Part shown: positions 5,533 to 63,195 of the stretch, piece after piece
How the letters are laid out: each line of letters opens with the position of its first letter
How positions within the stretch are numbered: the first letter of the stretch is position 1
Assembly (NCBI RefSeq): GCF_028641065.1
Contig: NC_073384.1
Coordinates: 72,168,001 to 72,232,000 of the forward strand
Source: Leucoraja erinacea
Lineage: Eukaryota
Reading direction: 5' to 3'
Length of the DNA stretch: 64,000 nucleotides
The notes under the pieces: generated by a model
Told to the model about the DNA's origin: nothing
The model's database searches: none
What the model saw: the letters and a program-made list of their open reading frames with translations, nothing else
Position numbers and translations under genes: made by a program

Positions 5533-5665
5533 GAAACAATGCCATAGAAGGTAAAAGCATGGAGTTCCACCTGCTTAACTTCAAGCGTTAAGCCAAACAT
5601 TAAAAGTGGTAATAAACTCAACCATTTCCTTTGCCACTTGCTAGTCAGGTGTAGAAGGGTTACAG

Positions 5666-5833
5666 TGTTCAAGAAGGAACTGCAGATGTTGGAAGATTGA
5701 AGGTACACAAAAATGCTGGAGAAACTCAGCGGGTTCAGACTGATGGTCTGAAGAAGGGTTTTGGCCCGAAACGTTGCCTATTTCCTTCGCTCCATAGATG
5801 CTGCTGCACCCGCTGAGTTTCTCCAGCATTTTT
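5666..5833. mobile_element. Short inverted PLE derivative with a hammerhead motif
   Basis: 17-bp TSD gtgtagaagggttacag (5649-5665, 5834-5850); inverted tail followed by ggtCTGAAGAagggttttggcccGAAAcgttgcc. Confidence 0.85.
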
Positions 5834-6082
5834 GTGTAGAAGGGTTACAGACTGTTCTGGGGAAAAGGGCACTGCACAGGATGAACACACTGCACCCAAA
5901 CACAACTGTGACTCTGAATGATCTTGCTGCGAGGTTAGTAAGTAGGGATTAAATTTTTATAGTAATGAAAGGGAAACTAGAAAACATCTGAATGGAGCAG
6001 CAATGAGAGAATTCAAATAAATATGTTAAAATCAGCGTAAATTTGATAAAATAATCTTTGCAGAAGACATTAAATGAATGCA

Positions 6083-6267
6083 AGATAGACAAAAATGCTG
6101 GAGAAACTCAGCGGGTGCAGCAGCATCTATGGAGCGAAGGAAATAGGCAACGTTTCGTACCGAAACGTTGCCTATTTCCTTCGCTCCATAGCTGCTGCTG
6201 CACCCGCTGAGTTTCTCCAGCATTTTTGTCTACCTTCGATTTTCCAGTATCTGCAGTTCCTTCTTAA
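6083..6267. mobile_element. Fold-back (palindromic) PLE derivative
   Basis: 16-bp TSD acattaaatgaatgca (6067-6082, 6268-6283); ~72-bp arms around a 3-nt loop at 6158-6160. Confidence 0.88.
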
Positions 6268-7169
6268 ACATTAAATGAATGCATGTTGGTACGTGCCACA
6301 TAAAACTGCCAACAAATTGCCATGCGGGATGCAACGTATTGACAAAAACATGGTTCAGACAAGCACAGGTTGTTAATATACCTGGTTAGGAAGCATCAAA
6401 GAATAATGGAGAAGTATAAAGAGGAGATTCATTGCATTGATTAGCGATGATATTACACAATTAAATAAAATGGATATCTGAGATGGGTTTAGGTTGGAAT
6501 GGGTTATTCAGGAAGAGCAGAGGAATGGAACTGGGCCAAGAGATTGGTGTTGAGATATAACTGTCCAATCTAATTTGTTAGCAAATTTCTACAAGGGACA
6601 AGTAAGGAAAGATCTACTTGTCATTCTCCCTGTGAACACTAATGATGTGAGTAGGAGTAGGATGAGGGTTTTGCAGAACAGCTTGAGGCAAAAGTGAAAA
6701 ACAGAACCACAAGATACTGATAATCTCTGAATATCAAAGTAGTTTTCAAACTGTCAGAGGATAAATGGTTTTTAAAACTGCTTAAAGATTGGCTCATCAA
6801 ATGGTATGTACAAGAGCTATATGTGACAACATATCCATGAAAAAATATATTTTAGAATTAGTTATTGGTAAAGAGAATTGTTGTATTGATACGGGCTTCA
6901 AATGAGACCATCCTCATCATTTATATAACAGGACAGGGGAGAAGAGAAGGCTTCTATTGAAAAGAAGTTTAATAAAAAACATTAAATGAGGCAGCAGTTG
7001 CAAATGATGGCAGAGAATAGGGTAGAAGATATAAACTAAATTGTGCGATAGAAAGTAAAGCCAAGATCATTCAAAGTTGTAAAAAGTCCAAATTTAAAGC
7101 TCTTTATCTGAGCATGGGCTAAGTTATGCCTCTGGTCCTCAGATGTTTCTTTAGGTAGAACTTAGAAAT

Positions 7170-10225: not shown

Positions 10226-10912
10226 CAGGGGTGGGGAACCTGCACCCGTCTAAGCCATTTAGTGCGGCCTTTTGAATTAATCCAAATTTTGTAGAACAAA
10301 GGTAGACAAAAGTGCTGGAGAAACTCAGTGGGTGCAGCAGCATCTATGGAGCGAAGGAAATTGACAACATAGAAACATAGAAATTAGGTGCAGGAGTAGG
10401 CCATTCGGCCCTTCGAGCCTGCACCGCCATTCAATATGATCATGGCTGATCATCCAACTCAGTATCCCGTACCTGCCTTCTCTCCATACCCCCTGATCCC
10501 CTTAGCCACAAGGGCCACATCTAACTCCCTCTTAAATATAGCCAATGAACTGGCCTCAACTACCCTCTGTGGCAGAGAGTTCCAGAGACAACGTTTTCGG
10601 GCCGAAAAACCCTTCTTCAGACTTGTCGAACAAATCTTTTTATTATTATTAATATGTTTTTGTTCATCTTTTATTATTTTATTTTAATCTTAAAATGAAC
10701 GTATTTAAAATACCAAAGAGCAAAAGAAGAGTCAACAAAATAATCCTCCCCGACTAACGGCCACGATTAAAACATTAGTAAGTCATGAGGGCTATTTTAA
10801 CAAAATAATGTACATTTTGAAGTGTATCTAATTGAAGTTTCTTGGATGCGGCCTTGTTAGATTACAGCTAACTTAATGCGGCCTTCCACCATGGAAAGGT
10901 TCCCCACCCCTG
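10226..10912. mobile_element. hAT (Charlie-like) non-autonomous transposon with nested PLE and CR1 fragments
   Basis: TIR caggggtggggaacct / aggttccccacccctg; perfect 8-bp TSD gtctagcc (10218-10225, 10913-10920). Confidence 0.9.
10368..10586 (-). mobile_element. Young CR1 3' end with (ctatgttt)n tail, inserted into a PLE hammerhead fragment (10301-10622)
   Basis: Nearly identical to 50980-51200; the PLE sequence resumes as gacaacgttttcgggccgaaaaacccttcttcagac. Confidence 0.85.
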
Positions 10913-12469: not shown

Positions 12470-12656
12470 AGGTAGACAAAAATGCTGGAGAAACTCAGTG
12501 GGTGAGGCAGCATCTATGGAGCAAAGGAAATAGGCAACGTTTCGTGCCGAAACGTTGCCTATTTCCTTCGCTCCATAGATGCTGCCTCACCCGCTGAGTT
12601 TCTCCAGCATTTTTGTATCCCTGTGATTTTCCAGCATCTGCAGTTCCTTCTTAAAT
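12470..12656. mobile_element. Fold-back PLE derivative
   Basis: Arms meet at gtttcg-tgc-cgaaac (12539-12553); TSD atgatta(g/t)aatact. Confidence 0.85.
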
Positions 12657-12749
12657 ATGATTATAATACTTGTTGCTGGCTTCTCCAAGAATTACTTTCC
12701 AGGTCAAACAATAGCGATGCTGGGGTGAAACCATATTGAACACGCTGAC

Positions 12750-16639: not shown

Positions 16640-18329
16640 TCTATAACACAATAGTTATGTTCCTAAGAAACCGTGTGTTGTAAAAAAATCATGTTATAAA
16701 TATGTCAATGGGGAAAGGGGGTTCGGGCTCAGTGTTTCAGAATCGCAATTACAAGATTATTTTTATGCATGATTAAAAAAAAACGTTTTTTTCAATAGCA
16801 ATAAGTTTATTTATGTTCCTGCAATCTAAAAATACTAAAAAAGGCTGCATGTTACATTATTTAATAAGGTATTGTTGCACAAATGTCAATAGACAAGTTG
16901 TGTACATGGATTTCAGTAAGGCATTCGATAAGGTGCCACATGGTAGGCTGCTCTGGAAGGTTAGATCGCATGGGATCCAAGGAGAGATAGCTGAATGGAC
17001 AGCACATTGGCTTCATGGAAGGAAGCAGAGGGTGATGGTGGAAGGTTGCTTCTCGTACTGGAGGTCTGTGACTAGTGGTGTGCCTCAGGATTCGGTGCTG
17101 GGCCCGTTACTGTTTGTCATCTACATCAATGATTTGGATGAGAACATACAGGGCAAGATTAGCAAGTTTGCTGATGATACAAAAGTGAGTAGTTTTGCAG
17201 GTAATGAAGATGGTTATGAAAGATTGCAGCAGGATCTGGATCGATTGGCCAGGTGGGCTGAGGAATGGTTGATGGAGTTTAATACAGAGAAGTGTGAGGT
17301 GTTGCATTTTGGGAAGTCTAACATGGGTAGGAATGGTAGGCCTCTGGGGAGTGTTGTAGATCAGAGGGATCTAGGAGTACAAGTGTTCTTTGAAGGTCGA
17401 GTCGCAGGTAGATAAGGTGGTGATAACGGCTTTTGGCACACTGGCCTTCATCAGTCAGAGTATTGAGTTTAGAAGTTGGGAGGCCATGTTGCAGTTGTAT
17501 AAGAAGTTGGTGAGGCCGCATTTAGAGTATTGTGTTTAGTTCTGGGCATCATATTATAGGAAAGACACTGTCAAGCTTGAAAGGGTTCAGAAAAGATTTA
17601 TGAAGATGTTGCCAGGACTAGAGGGTGTGAGCGACAGGGAGAGGTTGAGTAGGCTGGGTCTCTATTCCTTGGAGCGCAGGAGGAGGAGGGGCAATCTTAT
17701 AATCAAAATCATGAGAAGAATAGATCGGGTAGATGAATAGAATCTTTTACCCAGAGTAGGGGAATCAAGGACCAGAGGTGAAGGGGGAAATATTTAATAG
17801 GAATCTGAGGGGTAACTTTTTCACACAAATGGTGGTGGGTGTATGGAACAAGCTGCTAAAGGAGGTAGTTGAGTCTGGGACTATCCCATCGTTTAAGAAA
17901 CAGTTAGACAGGTACATGGATAGGACAGGTTTAAAGGGATATGGGCCAAGTGCAGGCAAGTGGGACTAGTGTAGCTGGGACATTGTTGGTCAGTGTGGGC
18001 AGGTTGGGCCGAAGGGCCTGTTTATGACATGACTGCTTGTCAATTTCAATGACAAATCTGCAGTTAAAGTTGCAGCTGTGTTCTTAAGATGTCTGATTAC
18101 TGCAGGGAGGTTACATGGAAACAGGTTTTTCTACCCATACTGTCTAAATACAAGAGCTTTTTTTTGTGCTTTTCGATCTCAAAGTAACTCTAATTGGTTC
18201 TCTAGTTTCTGATCAAAATCGCACTGTAAACAAACCGGCCTGGAACAAATCGAATGCAAATAATTCATCACTCATATTATAACCAATTCATGTTACGGAA
18301 ACACATGCTATTACAGAATTACCTGTAGT
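16640..18329. mobile_element. Possible Tigger-like remnant split by the CR1 insertion
   Basis: Right end ...attacagaattacctg|TA; left part ctctataacacaatagttatgttcc resembles Tigger subtermini. Confidence 0.3.
16885..18025 (+). mobile_element. CR1 (HER1-like) LINE, 5'-truncated, RT domain to 3'UTR
   Basis: VVYMDFSKAFDKVPHGRL...[22 protein letters not shown]...KFADDTK; 3' end gggccgaagggcctgttt shared with the SINE tails. Confidence 0.93.
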
Positions 18330-18908: not shown

Positions 18909-19832
18909 AATCTTTAAAAGTACAGGAGAATTATGCATTCAAAATGTAGGTGGTTGGACCAATAATCCATAAAGACAAGTACAAATCCCACAATGGCGGC
19001 TGGGGAATTTAAAATCAGTAAATTAAATACATTCACTCAATTAAATAAATGAATTCTGTTTTGGTGATGGTGACTCCCTAATCGATTGGAACTCTGAGCT
19101 GGTTCATCAATCTCCTTTAGGAAAGGTAATCTGGTCGGACCTATGTTTTGCTTCAACGTCACTGTAAAAAGCAATAATAACAAAACCAGGGAATCACCCA
19201 GCACCAACCTTAGCAATGAATATGACAAAGACAAATGCAGCTCTGTCATCCCATGAATCGTCCTTAATGACATCAATGTAAGGAATATGCCAAAACTGGG
19301 AGCACTGACCCATGGGCTAGCCAAGCATCAATCTGACATCATCATTTTCAATCACAGCTTCCAGCTCATAACTCACGCTCCTTAGTCAGTATCCCGGGAA
19401 CAATTCATTCAATGGGCAGAACAGGTCCAACAGGATGGAGTGATCCAAAGACTCTGCAACATTGACATGAGATGCTATACGTCCTGGCATCAGGTCACAA
19501 GTGATTATCAGCCATTGGCTTCTTCAACTGATGTATGAGTAATTCCTACTTGATGAATAAATGAGCTTATAGGGTAGAGAAGCCCCAGAAAGCACCTTCA
19601 GTGAGGATTTCAATGTCCATCACAATGTCGCTTTTTACCAGGAATTGATGTGGGTGTGTCGAGCAGTTGCATCTCCTCATGACAGGGAAAAATTTGACTT
19701 AAACAAATGCGCAATGAGTTGAACGGCCAACATAGAGACCTTATGGAGATCTAGAATCTCTCCGTCGTGCTGTGCAGCATGGAATAGATTCTACATGGAA
19801 TCAGCAGCTGGCAGTCAAGATTTATGTTTAGT

Positions 19833-19929
19833 TGGTCTGAAGAAGGGTTTCGACCCGAAACGTCACCCATTCCTTCTCTCCAGAGATGCTGCCTGTCCCG
19901 CTGAGTAACTCCAGCATTTTGTGTCTATC
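19833..19929 (+). mobile_element. 97-bp PLE-derived insertion (hammerhead plus tail)
   Basis: 11-bp TSD ttatgtttagt (19822-19832, 19930-19940). Confidence 0.82.
19834..19867 (+). ncRNA. Minimal type I hammerhead ribozyme motif (PLE-associated)
   Basis: ggt-CTGAAGA-a-gggt(ttcg)accc-GAAA-cg-TC|acc: helix I ggt/acc, helix II with UUCG loop, palindromic ACGU in place of helix III, GUC cleavage triplet. Activity not shown. Confidence 0.8.
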
Positions 19930-20511
19930 TTATGTTTAGTAATGTTGATTTCCCTAAATATGACTACATTTATGTCTACTTCTAATAAAATAAATTAAAA
20001 AAAATAAAATAAAAATATAAAAAATAAATACATTTACTACTCTTCAGCAGGAACATTAAGTGGTTTGAGATTAGCCACATATATCAAACAAATATTAAGG
20101 TTGAATGTATAAGTAGATCACTTGTAAGTTGAGGAAGCAGATCTTTACAGAAAGAGAAATTTACTCGCAAAGGGGTTCGGAATAATCATTCATTACTACA
20201 GCTTAATGATTGCAAAAAACTCACATATCTGTGAAATTCTGGATTTGATTGAGAGTATTTTTTTTAAACAATGATCATCAAACGTCAGATTTTCCAACAG
20301 TAAGATTAGCCAGGATTGTAAAGGATGCCTCCTTTTTCAAATCGATAGAACAAAAACCATTAAAACACAGTAGGTTGCATTTGCAGTACCCCAGCCAATA
20401 TTTGTCTTCAAGCAACAGTGAATATGCATCATCCAATCTTGGTGGGAACCTAATGTGCAAATTCTTTGACAATGCCTCAGAAAGTAATTGAGCTGGAGGC
20501 ATTTTTTTTTG

Positions 20512-24418: not shown

Positions 24419-25123
24419 AACCAGCAGCAGTTGCTTTCTACAGATATTTTTATCAGTTTGGTTATAGGTTAAATTATCAGAAATATATGCAAAATATAAA
24501 GCACATCTAGTGCAGGAACTTACTGATTTTTAACATGAAGAGCATGGGATTTAAATCAGTCGAATACCAGTACCTCATACAGGAAATAAATTGTACTGTT
24601 ATGAATTCAAAAGCACATTTGATCTTCCTTTGGATAAGTAAATGCCCAATGCTACTCAATTATTTAAGACGGGTGAAAGAGATAAACTATAAAATTGTAG
24701 ACTTAATAGTTTAATGCTTCTTAATTTTCATTAGCCATTGTTAACCCTCACACACAGACATAATGAAATTCACATTATTAGATGTTCATGCTGCAATTTT
24801 TTTAATTGAGCCTCCGTTTCAGTATCGACTATCTCCACAATTTGATTACATACATAAAGTCAACAATTGTGGATCGCATTTTTAAATGCCATTATAGTTG
24901 TTTGAATTTTAAACACAGTGATACACGTGGGATATGTTTTTCATTTTGTGTTATTCTAATATCTACACTTTACTATAACTGCTTTTTAATCTTCATCCAG
25001 GGAATTTTCTTACATGTTCCTGCTAGGGGTGATGACTATGCAAAACGCTCTGGTTATTATCCATCTGCAGAACTGTATTCAGTTCTAGACAATGCTTCTC
25101 TGGCAGGACACGTAACCTATTAT

Positions 25124-25296
25124 AGGCACAAAATGCTGGAGTAACTCAGTGGAACAGGCAGCATCTCTGGAGAGAAAGAATGGATGACGTTTCGGGTCGA
25201 GACCCTTCTTCACATAACCGATTGCCGACGTCACCTATTCCTTCGCTCAATAGATGCTGCCTCACCCGCTGAGTTTCTCCAGCATTTTTGTCTACC
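25124..25296. mobile_element. Inverted PLE derivative made of two subfamily tails
   Basis: Minus-strand tail with truncated hammerhead, then plus-strand tail; flanking acctat repeats. Confidence 0.65.
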
Positions 25297-28266: not shown

Positions 28267-29030
28267 TGGGCCTGTCCCACTGAGGCGGCTTTTTAGGCGA
28301 CACTGGTGGTCGCTGGGGTGTCGTCTGTATGGTCGTGAGTAGCCTCCTCAGTCGCCCAAAGAGTCGTAGCATCTTTCTGGTTTTCAACATGTTGCAAATT
28401 TTTCGTCAACAGTGGCGACCTTGGGTTTGATGCCAAATGAGCTGTCGTTGGTTGTCGCCAGGATGTCCTAGGGCAGGGGTGGGCAACCTTGTTCTGCATA
28501 GGGGCCGGGACGCATGTCTGTGAGCGGATGGCGGGCCACATCTATCACGTGTACACATGGATCCCACCCCCATCCCACCCCGGATGGCAGGCATCAAATC
28601 ACGTGTTCACAGAAGGTAGACAAAAATGCTGGAGAAACTCAGCGGGTGAGGCAGCCTCATGCAATCCTTGCATGTTTCGCCCGCTGAGTTTCTCCAGCAT
28701 TTTTGTCTACCGTCGATTTTTCCAGCATCTGCAGTTATTTCTTAAACGTGTTCGCAGAAGGTGCGTGGCCGTGCCGGCAGCTTTGCGCAGGATACGGTAC
28801 AGCCAGAGCTTGGCCGCGTTCGGCGGGCCGGATGATTACGGGGGGTGGGGGGAAATCTGCCTGCGGGCCGGATGATTAGGGGGGAAAAATCTGCCTGCGG
28901 GCCGGATGATTCCGGGGGCCGTAGGTTGCTGACCTGTCGTAGGGTGTCGCCAGGTGACGTAGGTTGTCGCTGGTGCTGACTTCGGTGAATTTCAAAGTTG
29001 TGTTCGCCGGCAGTCGACTAAAAAATCACA
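28267..29030. mobile_element. PIF/Harbinger-type MITE (right end lost) hosting a hAT element
   Basis: TAA|tgggcctgtcccact; interior matches 63196-63610. Confidence 0.72.
28474..28936. mobile_element. hAT (Charlie-like) MITE hosting a fold-back PLE (28618-28745)
   Basis: TIR caggggtgggcaacct / aggttgctgacctg; TSD tcctaggg/tcgtaggg; subterminal gcgggccggatgatt repeats; PLE TSD acgtgttc(a/g)cagaaggt. Confidence 0.8.
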
Positions 29031-30412: not shown

Positions 30413-30590
30413 TGATGATAGACACAAAAGCTGGAGCAACTCAGCAGATCAGACAGCATCTCTGAAGATAAGGAATAGATAACGTTTCGGGTCGAGACCC
30501 TATTCCTTTTCTCCAGATATGCTTGCTGTCTGACTCACAGCTGTTTGTGTCTATCTTCAGTTTAAACCAGCATCTGCAGTTCCTTCCTAC
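30413..30590. mobile_element. Fold-back PLE derivative (second subfamily)
   Basis: 10-bp TSD attattaacc (30403-30412, 30591-30600); inversion point at helix II gggtcgagaccc. Confidence 0.78.
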
Positions 30591-30826
30591 ATTATTAACC
30601 GGAGATAGGTTTGGACTAAATTTGCTAATATAAAAATGGCAAAACAAGATTTAATATGGTTTGCCAGACTGTCTATTCCTAAAGAACTACCAAACTCTGC
30701 AAGCATCTTCTGTTGTGTGGGAACTCTGGACAGCACAACCCTGTATTAATCTTAGGACTAAAAGGTTGATCTTAATGATCCTCATAAAAGGATGAATAGT
30801 GAGGCCACACAAGAATTTATAGGTTG

Positions 30827-33180: not shown

Positions 33181-33397
33181 ATAATGAGACAATGACCGAT
33201 GCCTTGTCTTGAAAGTACCAACTGATAAGATGCCTTTGAAATGTGACTGCTAATTGACAAGAGACCAGCTCAGACACATCCTGTGGTGATGTGTATTGAC
33301 TGTATCTCTGACCATGACTAACATCTTTGGTTATGTGACTAAGTGACAAACACACAGTATAAAATATCATGCAATTCTTTGTTCATTGAAGTGGCAC

Positions 33398-35478
33398 ACG
33401 TTTCGGGCCGAAACCCTTCTTCAGACTGATCAGGGGTGGGTGGGGACAAGAAAGGGAAAAGGAGGAGTAGCCGGAAGGCTGGAGGGTGGGAGGAGACAGC
33501 AGGGGAGCTGAGGAAGGGGAGGAGACAGCAAGGACTAACAGAATTGGGAGAAGTAGATGGCCACCATCTCCAGCACCATCACCAACTTCATCCACTCCAA
33601 TGCCCTGCCCGACCGAGCCTCCAACCTCATCGTTCCCCAGCCCCGCACAGCCCGATTTTACCTTCTCCCTAAAATCCACAAACCTGATTGTCCCGGGAGA
33701 CCCATTGTCTCCGCCTGTTCGTGCCCCACCGAACTCATTTCCAAATACCTTGACTCCATCCTATCAAAGTTGGTTAAATCCCTCCCTACCTATGTCCAAA
33801 ATGCACCTCAGACACTCTCCGTTTCGGGTCGAGACGCATTCAATTCTCTAGGCCCTCACCCCCTCATCTTCACCATGGATGTCCAGTCACTATACACCTC
33901 CATCCCCCACCAGGATGGCTTCAAAGCTCTCCGGTTCTTCCTCGACCAGAGGAGCAACCTATACCCAGCCACTGTCACCCTCCTCCGCCTAGCGGAGTTC
34001 ATCCTCACCCTCAACAACTTTATGTTTAACTCCTCCCACTTCCTCCAAATACAAGGCGTAGCTATGGGCACACGAATGGGCCCCAGCTTGCCTGCCTATT
34101 TGTAGGTTACGTCGAGCAAAAGTCAATACATACCAGGGCCCCATCCCCGACCTCTACCTCCGCTACATCGACGACTGCTTTGGTGCCACCTCCTGCACCC
34201 GCACACAACTGACTGACTTCATCCACTTCACCACTAATTTCCACCCGGCACTGAAATACACCTGGACCATTTCCGACACTTCCCTACCATTCCTTGACCT
34301 CACTATCTCCATTGCAGGTGATAGACTTCTAACCGACATACACTATAAACCCACTGACTCCCATGGCTATCTGGACTACACTTCTTCCCACCCTGCTTCC
34401 TGTAAGGACTCCATCCCCTACTCCCAATTCCTCCGTCTACGCCGCATCTGCTCCACGGATGAGGCGTTCCACACCAGGACATCTGAAATGTCCTCACTAT
34501 TCAGGGAACGGGGGTTCCCCTCCTCCACCATAAATGAGGCTCGCACCAGGGTCTCTTCCATACCCCGCAACACTGCTCTCTCTCCCCATCCCCGCACTCG
34601 CAACAAGGGCTGAGTCCCCCTAGTCCTCACCTTTCACCCCACCAGCCGTCACATACAAAAATAATCCTCCGTCAGTTTCGTAAACCTCCAACGTGGCCTG
34701 TCCCACTACTACCACATCTTCCCATCTCCCCCCATATCTGCCTTCCGCAAAGACCGCTCCCTCCATAACTCCCTTGTCAATTCTTCCCTTCCCTCTCGGT
34801 CCACCCCCTCCCCGGGCACTTTCCCTTGCGGCCGCAGGAGATGCAACACTTGTCCCTTTACCTCCCCCCTCAACTCCGTTCAGGGACCCAAGCAATCGTT
34901 CCAGGTGCGACAGAGGTTTACCTGCATCTCTTCCAACCTCATCTATTGCGTCCGCTGCTCTAGATGTCAGCAGATCTATATCGGTGAGACCAAGCGGAGG
35001 TTGGGCGATCGTTTCGCCGAACACCTCCGCTCGGTCCGAAATAACCTAGCTGACCTCCCGGTGGCTCAGCACTTCAACTCCCCCTCCCACTCCGCCTCCG
35101 ACCTCTCTGTCCTGGGTCTCCTCCATGGCCACAGCAAGCAGCACCGGAAATTGGAGGAACAGCACCTCATATTCCGTTTGGGGAGTCTGCACCCCGGGGG
35201 CATGAACATCGACTTCTCCCAATTCTGTTAGTCCTTGCTGTCTCCTCCCCTTCCTCAGCTCCCCTGCTGTCTCCTCCCACCCTCCAGCCTTCCGGCTACT
35301 CCTCCTTTTCCCTTTCTTGTCCCCACCCACCCCCCCACCCCTGATCAGTCTGAAGAAGGGTTTCGGCCCGAAACGTTGCCTATTTCCTTCACTCCATAGA
35401 TGCTGCTGCACCCGCTGAGTTTCTCCAGCTTTTCTGTGTAACCTTCGATTCTCCAGCATCTGCAGTTCCCTCTTAAAC
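33398..35478 (+). mobile_element. Neptune-type Penelope-like element, 5'-truncated, with an inverted partial pLTR; RT + GIY-YIG ORF disrupted
   Basis: RFYLLPKIHKPDCPGRPIVS, FTMDVQSLYTSI, QIQGVAMG, YIDD (34164-34175), linker CGRRRCNTC, NLIYCVRCSRCQQIYIGETKRRLGDRFAEH; frameshifts and a stop; 33398-33554 is the inverse of 35212-35376. Confidence 0.93.
35346..35380 (+). ncRNA. Minimal hammerhead motif in the PLE 3' repeat
   Basis: cagt-CTGAAGA-a-gggt(ttcg)gccc-GAAA-cg-TT|gcc. Confidence 0.7.
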
Positions 35479-36454
35479 ACTAACATCTTTGGAATGTGAC
35501 TAAGTGACAAACACATAGTATAAAACATCATGCAAGTCAAGTGTCTGTGTTGCTTACTTGACTGGTGCATCCCCGTCACTTGCCGGCAGATGATCAGTAA
35601 AGATTGAGTTGGTCTACCTAACGTTTTTGTGAGTTGTCTGTTTATTAAGTAGTGAACCGAAACAGCGCGACCCGCTGAGTTACTCCGGTAGTTTGTGTCT
35701 TTCCCTTAGTCAAAGGTTCCACCCAAATTGCCAAGACCTGCATACATAATTTCTCAAATAGTTTATATCCCAAAACATTATTTTCTTATAGAAATGAGAG
35801 CAACTTTCACCCAAATGAATCAATACTGTTTCCGATGTCTTCGTGCCTTGTTTGATCACTGACAGAAATGCAATTTTTAATTTACTCTGCTTCAAAGTTC
35901 TGGACATTACTCTGGATCAAAGGGACACAAAATGCTGGTGGCAGCATCGGTGAAGTTTCGGGTCGAGACCTTTCTTCAGAGTTTCCTCTGGATCACACTG
36001 GTGCATTTCATGGTATAATATATGTTAATCTCCAGCTCTCTATAATACCAAATTGATGAAAGTGTGGAAGTTCATGCAGTATATACAGATCTCATTGCAA
36101 AAATAAATCATAAAAGTTCTACTAATCTAGACAGGTGCTAAAGCACCAAAATCCTCAATATGTTATTTAATTGAAAATAGAAATCTTCAATGAGTCAGGG
36201 TGGGGAGAGGAACTGTATCATATTAAGATTTTCCTATTGATTAAAAAGTTATGCTTAAAAGTCAATTTAAAAAAAAATATTTAAATTATTCTTTTAAATT
36301 ATTGTACCAGCTGGAAACAGCTGGAAACATTGGAGGAACGTAGAACAGTATCAGCACTGGAACAGGTTATTTGGCCTACAATGCCTGTGCAAACATGATG
36401 CCAAATTAAATTAATATCCTTGGCACGGGATCGATACAGATATCGAAACCGATA

Positions 36455-43486: not shown

Positions 43487-45087
43487 GGTAGACACAAAAT
43501 GCTGGAGTAACTCAGCGGGTCAGGCAACATCTCTGGAGAGAAGGAATTGGTGACGTTTCGGGTTGAGATCCTTCTTCAGACTGATGTCAATAAACAATAG
43601 ATGCAGGAGTAGGCCATTCGGCCCTTCGAGCCAGCACCGCCATTCAATGTCAGGGGAGGGGACGGAACAAAGATAGAATGTAGTCGGAGACAGTAAGACT
43701 GGTGGGAGAACTGGGAAGGGGGAGGGGATAGATAGAGAGAGAGGGAAAGCAAGGGCTATCTGGTTATAGAAGTCAATGTTCATACCGCTGGGGTGTAAAC
43801 TACGAAATATGAGGTGCTGTTCCTCCAATTTGGGCTGGGCCTCACGCTGACAATGGAGGAGTGAAAGGTCAGATTAGGAATGGGAGGGGGAGTTAAAGTG
43901 CTGAGCCACCGGGAGATCAAGTAGGTTAAGACCGAATGAGCGGAGGTGTTCAGTGAAACGATCGCCGAACATGCGCTTGGTCTCGCCAATGTAGAGAAGT
44001 TGACACCTGGAACAGCGGATATCCCCTAAAAGACTCTATCCCCTACTCCCAATTCCTCCGTCTATGCCGCATCTGTACCCAGGATGAGGCGTTCCATACC
44101 TGGGCATCAGAGATGTCCTCATTCTTTAGGAAACGGGGGTTCCCCTCTTCCATTATAGATGAGGCTCTCACTAGGGTCTCTCGTATCCCGCAGATCTGCT
44201 CTTACCCCCCCTCCTCCCATTCGTAACAAGGACGGAGGCCCCTTGTCCTCACCTTCCACCCCATCAGCCGTCGCATACAGCATATAATCCTCCAACATTT
44301 TCGCCACCTCCAACGGGATCTCACTACTGGCCACATCTTCCCATCTCCACCCCTTTCTGCTTTCCACAGATACCGTTCCCTCCGCAACTCCCTGGTCAAC
44401 TCATCCCTTCCCACCCAAACCACCCCCTCCCCAGGTACTTTTTCCTGCAAGCGCAGGAGATGCAACACCTGTCCCTTTACCTCCCCCCCTCGACTCCATC
44501 TAAGGACCCAAGCAGTCTTTCCAGGTGAGGCAGAGGTTCACCTGCACCTCCTCCAACCTCATCTACTGTATCCGCTGTTCCAGGTGTCAACTTCTCTACA
44601 TCGGTGAGACCAAGCGCAGTCTCGGCGATTGTTTCGCTGAACACCTCCGCTCAGTCTGCCTTACCCTACCTGATCTCCCGGTTGCACAGCACTTCAATTC
44701 CCCCTCTCATTCCCAATCTGACCTTTCTGTCCTGGGCCTCCTCCAATTTTCAGAGTGAGGCCCAGCACAAATTGGAGGAACAGCACCTCATATTTAGCTT
44801 GGGTAGTTTGCACCCCGGAGGTATGAACATTGACTTCTCTAACTTCAAATAGCCCTTGCTTTCCTTTGCTATCCCCTCCCCCTTCCCAGTTCTCCCACTA
44901 GTCTTACAGTCTCCGACTACAATCTATCTCTGTCCCGCCCCCTCCGCTGACATCAATCTGAAGAGGGTCTCGACCCGAAACATCACCAATTTCTTCTCTC
45001 CAGAGATGTTGCCTGACCCGCTGAGTTACTCCTGCATTTTGTGTCCACCTTCGATTTAAGCCAGCATCTGCAGTTCTTTCCTACACA
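43487..45087 (+). mobile_element. Neptune-type PLE, truncated, with a large inverted 3' copy (43487-44020)
   Basis: 13-bp TSD tggatacaggcca (43474-43486, 45088-45100); NLIYCIRCSRCQLLYIGETKR; hammerhead motifs at ~43550-43585 (minus) and ~44957-44987 (plus); CR1 tail fragment at ~43590-43648. Confidence 0.9.
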
Positions 45088-45683: not shown

Positions 45684-46245
45684 CAAAGATCCTATAGTGA
45701 GCAAGATAGCCCACTCGACGAAAAAGACGTACTTCGGCCCCATTTCTGTAACCGGCTTCCGTCTCCGCGCTCCCATCCAAAGATCCTATAGCAACTGGAA
45801 TCTCCATGTTGTTATTATTTTGCCAAATACCGCAATTGTGAACAGTGTGATCAAATGAATTACAGTGCAAGTTTAATACAAACATCCTCAAACACAGCAC
45901 ACGAGCCATTTAAAAATATATATATTTTTTTTAACTTTAAAAATAGAAAATTAAAAAAAAAAATTTAAAAAGAAAATTAACAGAATTATAATTTATTGAC
46001 ATATTAATCATTAACAAAAAATAGCAGAATTATGAATGAACAGAATGATGAATAATGGGTCTAACACTATATCACACACACACACACAAATTGTTCCCCC
46101 ACAACGCTGATTATACTGCAAGAGGGATTTACAATCGGGTCAGGTTTACTGAAATAGCTGAAGAAAAGGCTGATGTTCAGTTCCGTAGCATACTACACAT
46201 CAGCCCATTGGTTTTAGCAGGATCTTGCTTGCTATAGGATCTTTG
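45684..46245. mobile_element. hAT-like MITE inserted into a PLE hammerhead core
   Basis: TIR caaagatcctatag / ctataggatctttg; TSD gtctgaag/gtctaaag; internal TIR copy at 45778. Confidence 0.85.
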
Positions 46246-46634
46246 GTCTAAAGAAGGGTTTCGACCCAAAACATTGCCTATTTCATTCGCTCCATAGATG
46301 CTGCCTCACCCGCTGAGTTTCAACAGCATTTTTAGCTACTTACAATAAAATTCTTGCTTGCGGCAGCACAACAGAATATGTATGTTAAATTCCACTTCCT
46401 GCATTCATGCCGGACAGCTTCCATTTGTTAGAGCATTTCTACAAGAAAGATTCTCCATTATGGGAGTAATATATATATATTTATACATATCTTAATGTTA
46501 AATAAAAATTAGAAGACTGAGTAAATGTGCTTTCAGACAAAAATATAGTATTGAACTTCAATGGATGGGCTGTTGACTTCTATTGACTACATGACATTAT
46601 GGGCAAAGCACACAAAATGCATTGTGAAAGGTCT

Positions 46635-46845
46635 GTGGAATTCTCTGCTTCAGAGGACGGTGGAGGCCGGTTCTCTGGATGCTTTTACGAGAGAGCTAGA
46701 AAGGGCTCTTAAAGATAGCGGAGTCAGGGGATATGGGGTGAAGGCAGGAACGGGGTACTGATTGGGGATGATCAGCCGTGATCACATTGAATGGCGGTGC
46801 TGGCTCGAAGGGCCGAATGGCCTACTGCTGCACCTATTATCTATT
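46635..46845 (+). mobile_element. CR1 3' fragment inserted in a PLE helix II
   Basis: LWNSLLQRTVEAGSLDAF...; the empty site aaggtctcgacccgaaac is at 24343-24360. Confidence 0.85.
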
Positions 46846-49146: not shown

Positions 49147-49952
49147 AGGGCCTGTCCCACTTATGTGACCTTTACAGGCGACTGCCGGCACCCGTAATAG
49201 GTCGCCGAAATGTTCAACATGTTGAAAATTCAACGGTGACCAGAAAGATGCGACGACTCTTTGGACACCTCTCACGACCATACAGGCGACCCCTGGCGAC
49301 ATGTGCATAGGAGACTTCTCATGACCATAGGTGGACAAAATTGCTGGAGAAACTCAGCTGGGTGCGGCAGCATATATGGAGCGATGGAAATAGGCAACGT
49401 TTCTGGCCAAAACCCTTCTTCAGAGTTCCTTCTTGAACACTTCTCACGACCATTACAGCCTGTATGGTCGTGAGCGGTCTCCAATGGTCGTGCTGTCTGC
49501 GGAGGGCGCTCAGCATCGCCAAGGACTGCTCTCACCCCAACGTCATGGACTGTTTACGCTCCTACCATCCGGGAGGCGCTACAGGTCTCTCCGTTGCCGA
49601 ACCAGCAGGTCGAGGAACAGCTTCTTTCCGGCCGCTGTCAATCTACTAAACAACGTACCTCGGTGACTGCCAATCACCCCCCCCACGGACACTTATTATT
49701 TATTTTTTTAATTCAAAATCGTTTGCTATGTCGCTCTTCAAAGGAGATGCTAAATGCATTTCGTTGTCTCTGTACTGTACACTGACAATGACAATTAAAA
49801 TTGAATCTGAATCTGAATCTGAATCTGAGAGGTCTCCAAAGAGTCGTAGTGTCTTTCTGCTTGCCACTGAATTTTCAGCATGTTGAAAATTTTGGTGACC
49901 TATGACGGGTGCCGGCAATCGCCTGTAACGGTCGCGTAAGTGGCAAGGCCTT
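49147..49952. mobile_element. PIF/Harbinger-type MITE with nested PLE (~49328-49437) and Rex1 (~49490-49827) fragments
   Basis: TSD TAA; long TIRs; Rex1 piece LFTLLPSGRRYRSLRCRTSRSRNSFFPAAVNLLN with (tctgaa)n tail. Confidence 0.82.
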
Positions 49953-55295: not shown

Positions 55296-55602
55296 ACCCA
55301 CCTACACCCCACCCCTACCCCCCCCCCCCCCCCCCCCCCCCTGCATGCCCATTTCTCCCAACCAGTCACCCTACTCCTTTCTTCACCTCTGTAATCTCAT
55401 CTCCCATTCCCGAGTGCCATGTTTCCATTTTATTCCCCCTCCTTTCCACCCATAACCCTCCTTCTGGCTTTAAATGTCACTCTTCCTCTTCTTTCATCAT
55501 CTGACCGCCATCCTTGTGTCCCCTTTTCATCCCCAGCCTTTGTTACTTACGCCAGAGAGCTGCCAAAAAAACGCCTCCCCCACCTGTCTCTACTTGTCAC
55601 TT

Positions 55603-55762
55603 GTGTGGGAAGGATCCGCAGATGCTGGTTTACGCCAAAGACAGATACAAAATGCTGGAGTAACTCAGCGGGACGGGCAGCATCTCTGGAGAGAAGGAAT
55701 GGGTGAGACGTTTCGGATCGAGACACTTCATCAGACTGAGAGTCAGGGGAAAGGGAAACTAA
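55603..55762 (-). mobile_element. PLE 3' tail with hammerhead motif (CTGATGA variant)
   Basis: Minus strand tcagtCTGATGAagtgtctcgatccGAAAcgtc. Confidence 0.7.
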
Positions 55763-60268: not shown

Positions 60269-60629
60269 TATATTTCTGGAGTGCATGCTGCCCTTAACAA
60301 TATGTCAAAAAAAACAACTGGATAGGCCACTTTTAATTTACCATTCAACCAGACTGAGCTTACAGCTTAATAGTGTTTGAATATTTATATGTAGTCACTA
60401 GACTAAGTGGGACCCGTTGGGTCCCATGTTCACACGGCAGGGCTGGTCCCCCGACGCAATATTCCACCTCTCCACCAATTCCAATATTGGTGGCCAGTGG
60501 GGGGGCTATCTGGAGTGCTGGTATGGGTTCTTGGGGTGGCAGCTCAGTCCCTCAAGCCTGATCTGCTGGCAGCTCACTCACGGCTGGTGGGCTGGCAGTT
60601 GACTCATGACTATTCCTTGAAATTCCTTT

Positions 60630-60885
60630 TCAAGCAGGGTGTAAGGCCACCAAATTCAAGTGCAGTTTCTTACCACTTTCAGCAGGGTGCAAGGCCACCA
60701 AATTCAAGTGCAGATTCCTACCACTTCAAGCAGGGTGCAAGGCCACCAAATTCAAGTGCAGTTTCATACCACTTTCAGCAGGGTGCAAGGCCACCAAATT
60801 TAAGTGCAGTTTCATTCCACTTCAAGCAGGGTGCAAGACCACCAAATTCAAATGCACCTTCATACCATTTCAGGCAGGGTGAAAC
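60630..60885. repeat. 48-bp minisatellite, ~5 copies, inside the Helitron
   Basis: Unit cagggtgcaaggccaccaaattcaagtgcagtttcataccactttcag. Confidence 0.92.
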
Positions 60886-61249: not shown

Positions 61250-61728
61250 GCATTTGCAGTAGTGCCTTTTAACTTCAAGCCAAAGCACCCAAGCCGCCAT
61301 TTGCAGTAAGTAGTGCCTTTCAACTTCAAGCCAAACCACCCAAGCCGCCATTTGCAGTAAGTACTGCCTTTCAACTTAAAGCCAAAGCACCCAAGCCACC
61401 ATTTGCAGTGAGTAGTGCCTTTCAATCAAGCCAAAGCACCCATGCCACCATTTGCAGTAAGTAGTGCCTTTCAACTTCAAGCCAAAGCACCCAAACCACA
61501 ATTTGCAGTAAGTAGTGCCTTTCAGCTTCAAGCCAAAGCACCCAAACCACCATTTGCAGTAAGTAGTGCCTTTCAGCTTCAAGCCAAAGCACCCAAGCCA
61601 CCATTTGCAGTAAGTAGCGCCTTTCAAATTAAAGCCAAAGCACCCAAGCCACATTTGCAGTAAGTAGTGCCAACTTCAAGCCAAAGCACCCAAACAACCA
61701 TTTGCAGGCAGTGCCTTTTTACTTCAAA
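61250..61728. repeat. 51-bp minisatellite, ~9 copies, inside the Helitron
   Basis: Unit gccaaagcacccaagccaccatttgcagtaagtagtgcctttcaacttcaa. Confidence 0.93.
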
Positions 61729-63195
61729 CAAACCATATTTTCATTTTCAAACCACATTAAGGGGACTCACAGTTGTGTAGACATTTGTTCAGTGTTATTC
61801 AGAGCTCAGAGAGACGTGACCCTTGGCTTCATCCATCTTGCAGAGACTGAATGAGGCACACCACTTCCTGGTTTTATAGTTCCTCCCCCTCCCTCCAGCA
61901 GGGGCAGCAGAGAGAATGGTGAATATTTTTAAAACATTAATATCTCTCTGATTTGGCATCGATGGGAAAAATCCCCCGTAAGGTGGAGGGGGGCTCTGAG
62001 CGAGGTGGCCAAAAATGACGGCCGTACGTGGCAGCGTTCTGTCGGAAATCACAGCACAGTGGGCCAAAAGCGGTCAAGATCAGAGTTTTAGTAATATAGA
62101 TAATACAATGAAATTCAATGAAGTGGCCAATGGGGAAAATTATGAACCTGCTGCAAAGATCCTAGATTTGAGTAAATATGTCCTTAATGCCGTGTTAGAG
62201 CCATGCATGGTGACCATTCCTTGGAAGAAATTTAAACTAAAAGAAAAACATATAATAAAGGCAGAAACAAGTGGTGATGACAAAGTGACAAAGAATAAAA
62301 AGGTGACAGAAAAGTAAAGCCTATAGAAAATAACACGTTACATAAATTTAGGTCGGATATTAAAATAAAAACAAATAAAAAGATTGAGTAAAAGAGAGCC
62401 ATGTGAGCTTATTAAAAATAATTAATAATGATTCCATTAATAATAAGGGAATATTAAATGAAAATGTGCACCAACATATGTAATGGTGGAAAGGATAGAA
62501 TGCGGCATCCCAAGGAAATGAACAAAATATCAGCGAAAATTACAGATTAAAATTTCCAATTTACCAGAATAACACTTGTGAATAAAATAATGCATTAAAG
62601 GATGACAGGACCCTACTTCCTGATGGATTTCATTACAGAGTTTTAAAGGAAGCAGGTGAAATTATTGTAGATGCCCAATGATTTTTTGAATTGGGAACCA
62701 CTCTTTTTAATTGGCAAATGTGGGTGCCACATTTTACTTGAAGAAAGGAGATGCAGACCAGGGAAATATAGACCAGTTAGCTTTAATATCTAGTTTGAGT
62801 TCATTATTATCCAAGTCCGTACCAGAGAATGCGGTTGAACAGATGAATCCTGCTTTGATTTAAAAAACGAGTAGACTGTGACAGGTACGGATGGACAAAA
62901 TTGTTTTGAAGAGAAGGATAACAGAGTGTATTGGTTATAGTGGTGTGAAAGGCACTCTCTCATAAGAGGATGTTACTAAAGAGGAAACTCATAGTAATGA
63001 AGGGAAATTACTGACTTGCTTCCAAATTTGGCCAAGCAGTTGGAAATGCAGCACAGTGATGATGGAAATATGTAGACAGACAGAATATGATTAGTTGTAA
63101 ATTGTATAGATCTTAGTCAGGATTTATTCATCCTGCCTGCGAACTGTTTGCAAAGTGGGAGCGGATTTCATCGAAATGTATCAATGAAAGAAATG

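Follow-up and report, generated by a model that had tools for sequence, protein, structure and literature searches.

The 97-bp insert at 19833 to 19929, which carries a hammerhead ribozyme and a short tail, is the ribozyme-bearing end of a Penelope-like element (PLE) common in skate-like fishes and not a new kind of element. In the window, by which we mean the whole 64-kb stretch of DNA analyzed here, it is an ordinary object, one of about 31 PLE ends, and the boundary is its notable part. The insert is almost certainly a TPRT product of a PLE end, and the 5' starts of such ends pile up at helix I of the hammerhead, a hot spot that is very probably real. The full explanation that we favor, a dead-end PLE product made by run-off at helix I, has in our judgment about an even chance of being correct.

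The insert is bounded by TTATGTTTAGT, which is present as two exact copies in the window, at 19822 to 19832 and 19930 to 19940 of the plus strand, with 97 bp between them and no further extension of the repeat. Across the 31 insertion sites of the skate PLE-end family in the window, we searched for exact repeats no more than 10 nt from both boundaries and used 930 mismatched flank pairs as the control. Duplications of 10 to 17 bp (17, 16, 11, 10, and 10) were found at 5 of the 31 sites, and repeats of 10 bp or more were found in 0 of the 930 control pairs, which by sequence comparison identifies the 11-bp repeat as a target-site duplication and bears out the initial annotation, in which a hammerhead plus tail had been placed between perfect repeats. 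The 3' boundary can be placed only to within 2 nt, since the right repeat opens with two bases that the element shares. The flanks are unique within the window and hold no long open frame. From left to right on the plus strand, the insert consists of a TG at 19833 to 19834 that is absent from the duplication and from the long copies, which have CA there; a minimal type I hammerhead at 19834 to 19867, to which the G of the TG contributes the third helix I pair; and a PLE tail at 19868 to 19929 that reaches the first of two 3' end sites, at about +92 to +94 counted from the core C.

Helix I of the hammerhead is 3 bp long (GGU at 19834 to 19836 with ACC at 19865 to 19867) and is followed by the core CUGAAGA at 19837 to 19843 and an extra A at 19844. 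Helix II (GGGU-UUCG-ACCC, 19845 to 19856) has 4 bp, and GAAA-CG-UC at 19857 to 19864 completes the motif, with no loop 3 and a predicted cut after 19864. The PLE-type core, CUGANGA / GAAA / UH with an extra base before helix II, is thus present at 19837 to 19864. The claim that this is a well-formed minimal hammerhead held for the core, the UUCG-capped helix II, and the extra A; it did not hold for the monomer, in which the predicted hammerhead fold (-7.0 kcal/mol) loses to a competing structure at -22.9 kcal/mol and the pairs of helices I and II have probabilities of about 0. Modeling suggests that the hammerhead is well formed only as a dimer; it has an ACGU palindrome of the dimer type, and the predicted helix III duplex is worth only -1.7 kcal/mol. 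The UUCG loop is not a hallmark of the family, whose consensus has a CUCG loop and a U-A closing pair. The tail complementarity that had been noticed, ATGCTG (19886 to 19891) with CAGCAT (19912 to 19917), falls within a predicted 9-bp hairpin at 19883 to 19920. Neither the insert nor the tail folded better than shuffled sequences (z of -0.82 and -0.48), and Rfam at its gathering thresholds returned 0 matches across the whole window. We also observed that at 19839 to 19876 the 5' half of the hammerhead can pair with bases just beyond the cut site, which would keep the ribozyme from folding. Some relatives (L002 and L026) show comparable pairing on inspection by eye, and contig joints between +8 to +10 and +39 to +41 are frequent.

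Covariation was assessed in 11 sequences, 3 from the window and 8 from metagenome relatives. Helices I and II were paired in 97% of cells, a figure that selection favors given that the 8 metagenome motifs were chosen for motif match, and slid controls were paired in 23 to 49%. Double changes occurred in five of six helix pairs, and for four of five covariation measures 0 of 500 shuffles scored as high. These alignments indicate that the hammerhead is a real conserved structure of the PLE pLTR. The third helix I pair was kept in 9 of the 11 aligned motifs and broken only in the two long skate copies, which favors a non-chance source for the extra G that completes it in the insert.

When the 97 bp of the insert were compared with the window, 38 places, the insert included, matched at E values up to 0.001, and these were grouped into the 31 sites. 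On its sequence, the insert is the terminal hammerhead and tail of an autonomous Neptune-type PLE. A long, broken, 5'-truncated copy at 33557 to 35479 (plus strand) comprises an RT remnant, a Zn-finger-like linker, a GIY-YIG domain, and a 3' UTR, and ends in a hammerhead and tail (35348 to 35479, plus strand) that match the insert; its 5' end adjoins an inverted partial pLTR (33393 to 33559, minus strand) that stops just beyond the hammerhead core. A second long plus-strand copy, from another subfamily, lies at 44029 to 45087, with its hammerhead-and-tail end at 44956 to 45087 and an inverted piece at 43647 to 44021. The frames at 33557 to 35231 contain YIDD and IYIGET motifs, with the RT placed ahead of a C-terminal GIY-YIG endonuclease that has CCHH. 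In the linker of the long copy we found CX4CxxC (C55, C60, and C63), a form of the CX2-5CxxC linker that, being shared with Nematis, is not exclusive to Neptune. The endonuclease frame had 96 homologues, led by skate proteins (Leucoraja at 74% and 86%, Rhinoraja at 70%), some of which are annotated PF01541 or PF26215; C98, C101, and H120 were invariant in their alignment. A Pfam search of five frames gave no match in the broken PLE pieces and only an unrelated RT at 16777 to 17412; this fragment (16777 to 17415; RVT_1, E value of 7e-21) comes from another non-LTR element. Placement in the Neptune clade was made by motifs, those given in the available part of PMC8557442, and not by an RT tree.

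Several other features around these copies were observed. A duplication of about 60 bp (33317 to 33377 and 35479 to 35538; 92%) surrounds the long copy and is far longer than the other target duplications. A joint from 35173 to 35345, which omits 171 nt of the 3' UTR and is not of the GT..AG type, occurs in contigs of both organisms sampled below. Three copies (10369 to 10420, 43590 to 43650, and 46790 to 46845) directly adjoin the simple-repeat 3' end of another abundant retroelement, which we take to resemble the shark HE1/HER1 family. Single-cell reads (run X22, 33620 to 35640) were severalfold richer in the minus strand over most of the element, from either library chemistry or an antisense bias of host transcripts, and bulk reads were balanced. 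Tandem arrays with 48- and 51-bp units, both multiples of three and unrelated to the hammerhead, lie at 60628 to 60881, partly within an open frame, and at 61258 to 61735.

The association between endonuclease and hammerhead extends to relatives in metagenomes. Of a set of 80 loci, 63 have room after the endonuclease (at least 350 nt), and 24 of these 63 relatives carry the same minimal hammerhead within the first 700 nt downstream. Since the 80 loci were chosen by endonuclease, they cannot test 5' boundaries; incidental short pieces within them start between -63 and +124, in a few cases close to helix I. The skate hammerhead-and-tail unit had no match in pattern scans of viral, metagenome, and genome collections, and the relatives' motif matched 0 viral contigs and 2 genome contigs. 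Both of the latter, L081 and L082, are contigs of a bacterial genome assembly in which an animal PLE hammerhead probably reflects host DNA that entered the bin. L081 was rejected as a solo copy, being a longer rearranged piece. L082 is a solo copy from an unrelated animal family that is built like the skate insert, starting at -4 to -9, ending at +93, and having a 7-bp duplication; it is a single case, one of the two unselected matches.

The 3' ends of the skate copies fall into two groups. Hand-read from the core C, 23 of 33 window copies end at +82 to +98 and 9 of 33 at +125 to +133, a count that leaves out five segments stopping before +61 and one at +91. Among the positions listed, loose 3' ends of mapped reads were found on the long copy at 35437 to 35440 and 35479, and the metagenome relatives end at +80 to +97 (24 of 63) or +136 to +149 (31 of 63). 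Two end groups fit the anole PLE, whose tail is defined by two internal RT start sites (PMC11167929), and the focal insert ends at the first of the family's two sites, where it shares 2 nt of microhomology with the target. The window also holds six head-to-head inverted insertions (5664 to 5838, 6082 to 6274, 12470 to 12659, 28612 to 28750, 30417 to 30591, and 25122 to 25296). In five of the six, the arms stop near +92 on one side and near +128 on the other, as would happen if each nicked strand used one of the two RT start sites, and two of the six are centered on the helix II palindrome.

At the 5' side, we hand-read the starts of 37 segments, a few of them uncertain (39 segments, with two palindromic pairs counted once). 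Eight start at -3 to +2, six at +3 to +10, one at +11 to +27, 13 at +28 to +60, and about 10 upstream of -3. Per exposed nucleotide, the start rate is 0.093 at -3 to +2 versus 0.003 at +11 to +27 and 0.009 at -30 to -4, an excess with a post hoc binomial P value of 4e-5, the bin having been picked after the starts were seen, and a scan-corrected P value of 0.03. Three window copies start at -2: the focal insert, a copy at 46246 to 46346 (plus strand), and a copy of another subfamily at 5746 to 5838 (plus strand) that is one of the two arms of an inverted insertion whose duplication measures 17 bp. All three have a G at -3, where the long copies have A, and together they span two tail types. 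Two further copies, at 49329 to 49440 and 35924 to 35985 (-), start at -1 after a few bases that by eye resemble a scrap of inverted tail end.

Assembled DNA of two organisms shows the same boundary. Four sequencing runs were mapped to the long copy (33620 to 35640) at 88% likeness; run X1 may be the window's own sample, and run X3 comes from another organism and another study. Our findings on loose ends cover 24 of 4764 entries and those on joints 15 of 373. The leading 5' loose ends were at 35348 (-2), in at least 202 contigs of X1 and at least 223 of X3, with at least 161 further contigs of X3 ending at 35347 (-3). The sequences beyond these ends are A-rich and agree at only 0.33 to 0.34, which indicates that they are unrelated to each other. 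The peak is 1 to 2 nt wide, and the rate falls tenfold just upstream. The base before 35348 is G in the consensus of both runs (two G in X3), this being a plurality consensus and not a count; the -3 starts have no G. X1 depth reached 12.5 to 15.7 million over the hammerhead and tail versus no more than 3.3 million over the shared endonuclease and 1.0 to 1.8 million over the subfamily-specific UTR, so the hammerhead and tail run about four- to fivefold above the best endonuclease bin. In bulk RNA, 842 reads clip at 35347, and long copies of other subfamilies clip elsewhere, at 35344 to 35345, with a pyrimidine consensus (X22). Among the entries listed, no pile of ends was found at the cut site, 35378, nor of RNA ends there, for which the poly(A) and single-cell libraries are poorly suited, and no RNA starts were found at helix I, which is weak counterevidence given that the libraries were fragmented or of the 3' type. 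The enrichment of insert boundaries anticipated by the initial annotation was therefore found, both in 8 of 37 window segments and in the leading loose ends of two organisms. Its suggestion of an extreme 5' truncation describes the form of the insert correctly, yet the boundary is nonrandom.

The insert could also have arisen by ordinary 5' truncation of cDNA copied from the downstream pLTR if the hot spot came from RNA or cDNA structure, or from second-strand joining before the C-rich 3' UTR, and if the extra G came from a G-bearing subfamily or from untemplated addition. The starts do range continuously from +57 to -1750, inversions of the fold-back type are concentrated at the helix II palindrome and the competing hairpin, 5' truncation is the norm for PLEs as described in the available part of PMC8557442, and the X3 consensus has two G. 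The contig peak, however, is only 1 to 2 nt wide, with the tenfold drop just upstream, and it sits at the 5' foot of the structure, where no stall would be expected. We regard truncation as possible but rather unlikely.

We propose instead that the PLE endonuclease would nick AT-rich DNA and the RT would start internally in the tail, as in published PLE biochemistry: for the anole element, AT-rich nicking, internal initiation, a mainly uncut RNA template, and products made shorter when the template is truncated at its 5' end have been described (PMC11167929). The template would be uncut PLE RNA, given that the cDNA crosses the cut site, and the primer would be paired by 2 nt. A PLE transcript would carry RT start sites twice, behind the upstream and behind the downstream pLTR, and initiation behind the upstream pLTR would lead to copying only back to the RNA 5' end. 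Synthesis would then run off a defined 5' end at helix I, most likely the start of a capped PLE transcript. An RT that begins just past the hammerhead would, when bound at the junction of the upstream pLTR, copy only about 95 to 135 nt before reaching the cap. One kind of transcript would yield both the long copies, made from its downstream pLTR, and the solo hammerheads, made from its 5' leader, and a second nick 11 nt away would produce the duplication. By itself, the step of run-off from a capped 5' end is about as likely to be right as wrong. The sequence around -3 resembles the initiator consensus. The extra G would be a copied cap, following the argument made for L1, for which an untemplated 5' G was read as a sign of a capped template in the available part of PMC6425141; against this, the two G in X3 fit a G-bearing subfamily equally well. 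Against run-off, the window 5' starts are spread and not confined to helix I. In the D. virilis Penelope, helix I is separated from the upstream transcription start by 46 nt and a 75-nt intron, according to the available parts of PMC2377424 and PMC4209133. We tentatively extend run-off to the thousands of solo minimal hammerheads in animal genomes, which could largely be strong-stop-like copies of a capped PLE 5' leader rather than products of random truncation, although we hold this at somewhat less than an even chance.

An intron like that of D. virilis could also explain the extra G. If the insert copied a spliced RNA whose upstream exon ended in TGG, it would begin where it does and have a complete helix I, the third pair of which is kept in 9 of 11 aligned hammerheads. 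The long subfamilies have a pyrimidine tract and CAG before helix I, like the end of that intron; CAG precedes TCTGA in four of six long references, and the other two are one change away. TTGG occurs at the end of the endonuclease in three subfamilies, followed by GT in one, and the focal insert and the copy at 46246 match the TTGG-type end for 4 and 5 nt. Yet neither RNA nor DNA showed a GT..AG joint ending at 35349 among the 15 of 373 joints listed, past the G the loose-end consensus is rich in A and not TT, and window copies carry no more than 5 nt of such an exon. Splicing is for us a very improbable source of the boundary.

The short copies could also descend from short masters, transcribed from helix I and copied in trans by PLE protein as a SINE-like, nonautonomous family. 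Such a family would have the fixed 5' boundary, the severalfold excess over the element body, and the duplications that we observed, and the focal insert shares a head variant with the copy at 46246 on a different tail. In a tree of 18 copies (96 columns), however, the 13 short copies were scattered among the long subfamilies, needing 5 label changes against a shuffled mean of 4.6, and a single clade of all 13 was rejected (p-AU of 8.7e-5); several small short-copy lineages are compatible with the tree. The focal insert groups with a minus-strand copy at 55602 to 55759 (55736 in the tree) that retains 25 nt of 3' UTR and a full tail. The short copies moreover have the same 3' ends as the long ones, and anole PLE RNA needs about 55 to 60 nt past the main start site (PMC11167929), which the short copies would lack if the comparison across clades holds. 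We consider a SINE-like family improbable. The shared head variant (19833 to 19864 and 46244 to 46275), on tails of different subfamilies, possibly reflects head/tail exchange near the cut site or parallel change.

The initial annotation had also raised a retrozyme-like unit mobilized by the PLE RT. The PLE origin and RT mobilization are supported; the retrozyme is not. A non-LTR retrozyme would be a tandem-array unit amplified through self-cleaved circular RNA, and the minimal hammerhead, the length of about 100 nt, and the kinship to PLEs are all in its favor, as are vertebrate families of 51 to 972 bp, one of them chondrichthyan, in the available part of bioRxiv 10.64898/2026.07.22.740005. 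The tandem arrays that had been proposed as a check were sought, but no array of the insert's period was found in the window. None of the 31 window sites is arranged head to tail, each arm has one hammerhead, the boundaries lie away from the cut site, no tail-to-head joint was found among the 15 of 373 joints listed, the monomer hammerhead fold is disfavored, and the short copies have no lineage of their own. Given the lack of an array, of a cut-site boundary, and of a separate lineage, the retrozyme reading is largely refuted within the window, and we consider it extremely improbable as the origin of the insert.

Parts of this picture are established. Solo minimal hammerheads from truncated PLEs are described in the available part of PMC4209133, and PLE duplications, inverted pLTRs, and solo pLTRs in those of PMC3846280 and PMC8557442. 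Our literature search, which covered few subscription papers and no repeat databases or supplements, found no earlier report either of the hammerhead of this skate family or of boundaries piling up at helix I behind an extra G, and the available parts of PMC12602865 and PMC5680766 contain nothing on insertion boundaries. The questions touched are why PLEs keep a hammerhead, where vertebrate PLE transcription starts, and why solo hammerheads are abundant, and through the helix I hot spot with its extra G they can be addressed in existing assemblies and CAGE data. The favored start of short copies may mark where the element RNA begins. If run-off is true, the fixed start would map PLE transcription start to helix I, the in vivo template would be the uncut RNA, and cleavage would remove the cap. 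Pipelines that call "retrozyme monomers" may be counting PLE by-products.

Comparison with known systems places the insert among PLEs. According to the available part of PMC7229834, non-LTR retrozymes are likewise short, noncoding, and pLTR related, with a type I hammerhead. They are defined by tandem units that give cleaved linear and circular RNA (available parts of PMC7229834 and bioRxiv 10.64898/2026.07.22.740005), whereas the skate insert is a dispersed monomer with a target-site duplication and no lineage of its own; the chondrichthyan retrozyme families of the latter source could bear on it. The pLTR of the D. virilis Penelope, like that of the skate, has acceptor-like sequence at the start of helix I; D. 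virilis differs in having a proven intron and a transcription start 121 nt upstream, with no splicing seen among the skate joints listed (available parts of PMC2377424 and PMC4209133). Anole Poseidon PAc (Frangieh et al. 2024, PMC11167929) resembles the skate PLE in its tail, defined by two internal RT start sites, its AT-rich target, its use of uncut RNA as template, and the lack of reads ending at the cut site. It belongs to a different clade, and its main text does not discuss run-off solo copies; the skate element differs in the 1- to 5-nt microhomology at several 3' junctions and the duplications of 10 to 17 bp. With the Neptune clade as described in the available part of PMC8557442, the skate PLE shares a C-terminal GIY-YIG domain, the CX2-5CxxC linker, CCHH, 5' truncation, inverted pLTRs, and a 30- to 40-bp tail at one end, although the window has no full-length or tandem copy and the placement is by motifs. 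The closest match for the ribozyme is the metazoan PLE minimal hammerhead of Cervera and de la Pena (2014, PMC4209133), which in the available part of that paper also has no loop 3, a palindromic 15.2-16.2, an extra base before helix II, G10.1-C11.1, and a short helix I; in skate, helix II has 4 bp and helix I 2 to 3 bp. The same part includes no skate and reports no fixed 5' boundary, extra G, or duplications for solo motifs, but the solo motifs that it describes, mostly single copies ascribed to truncated PLEs with some opposite-strand pairs, are much like the skate copies described here.
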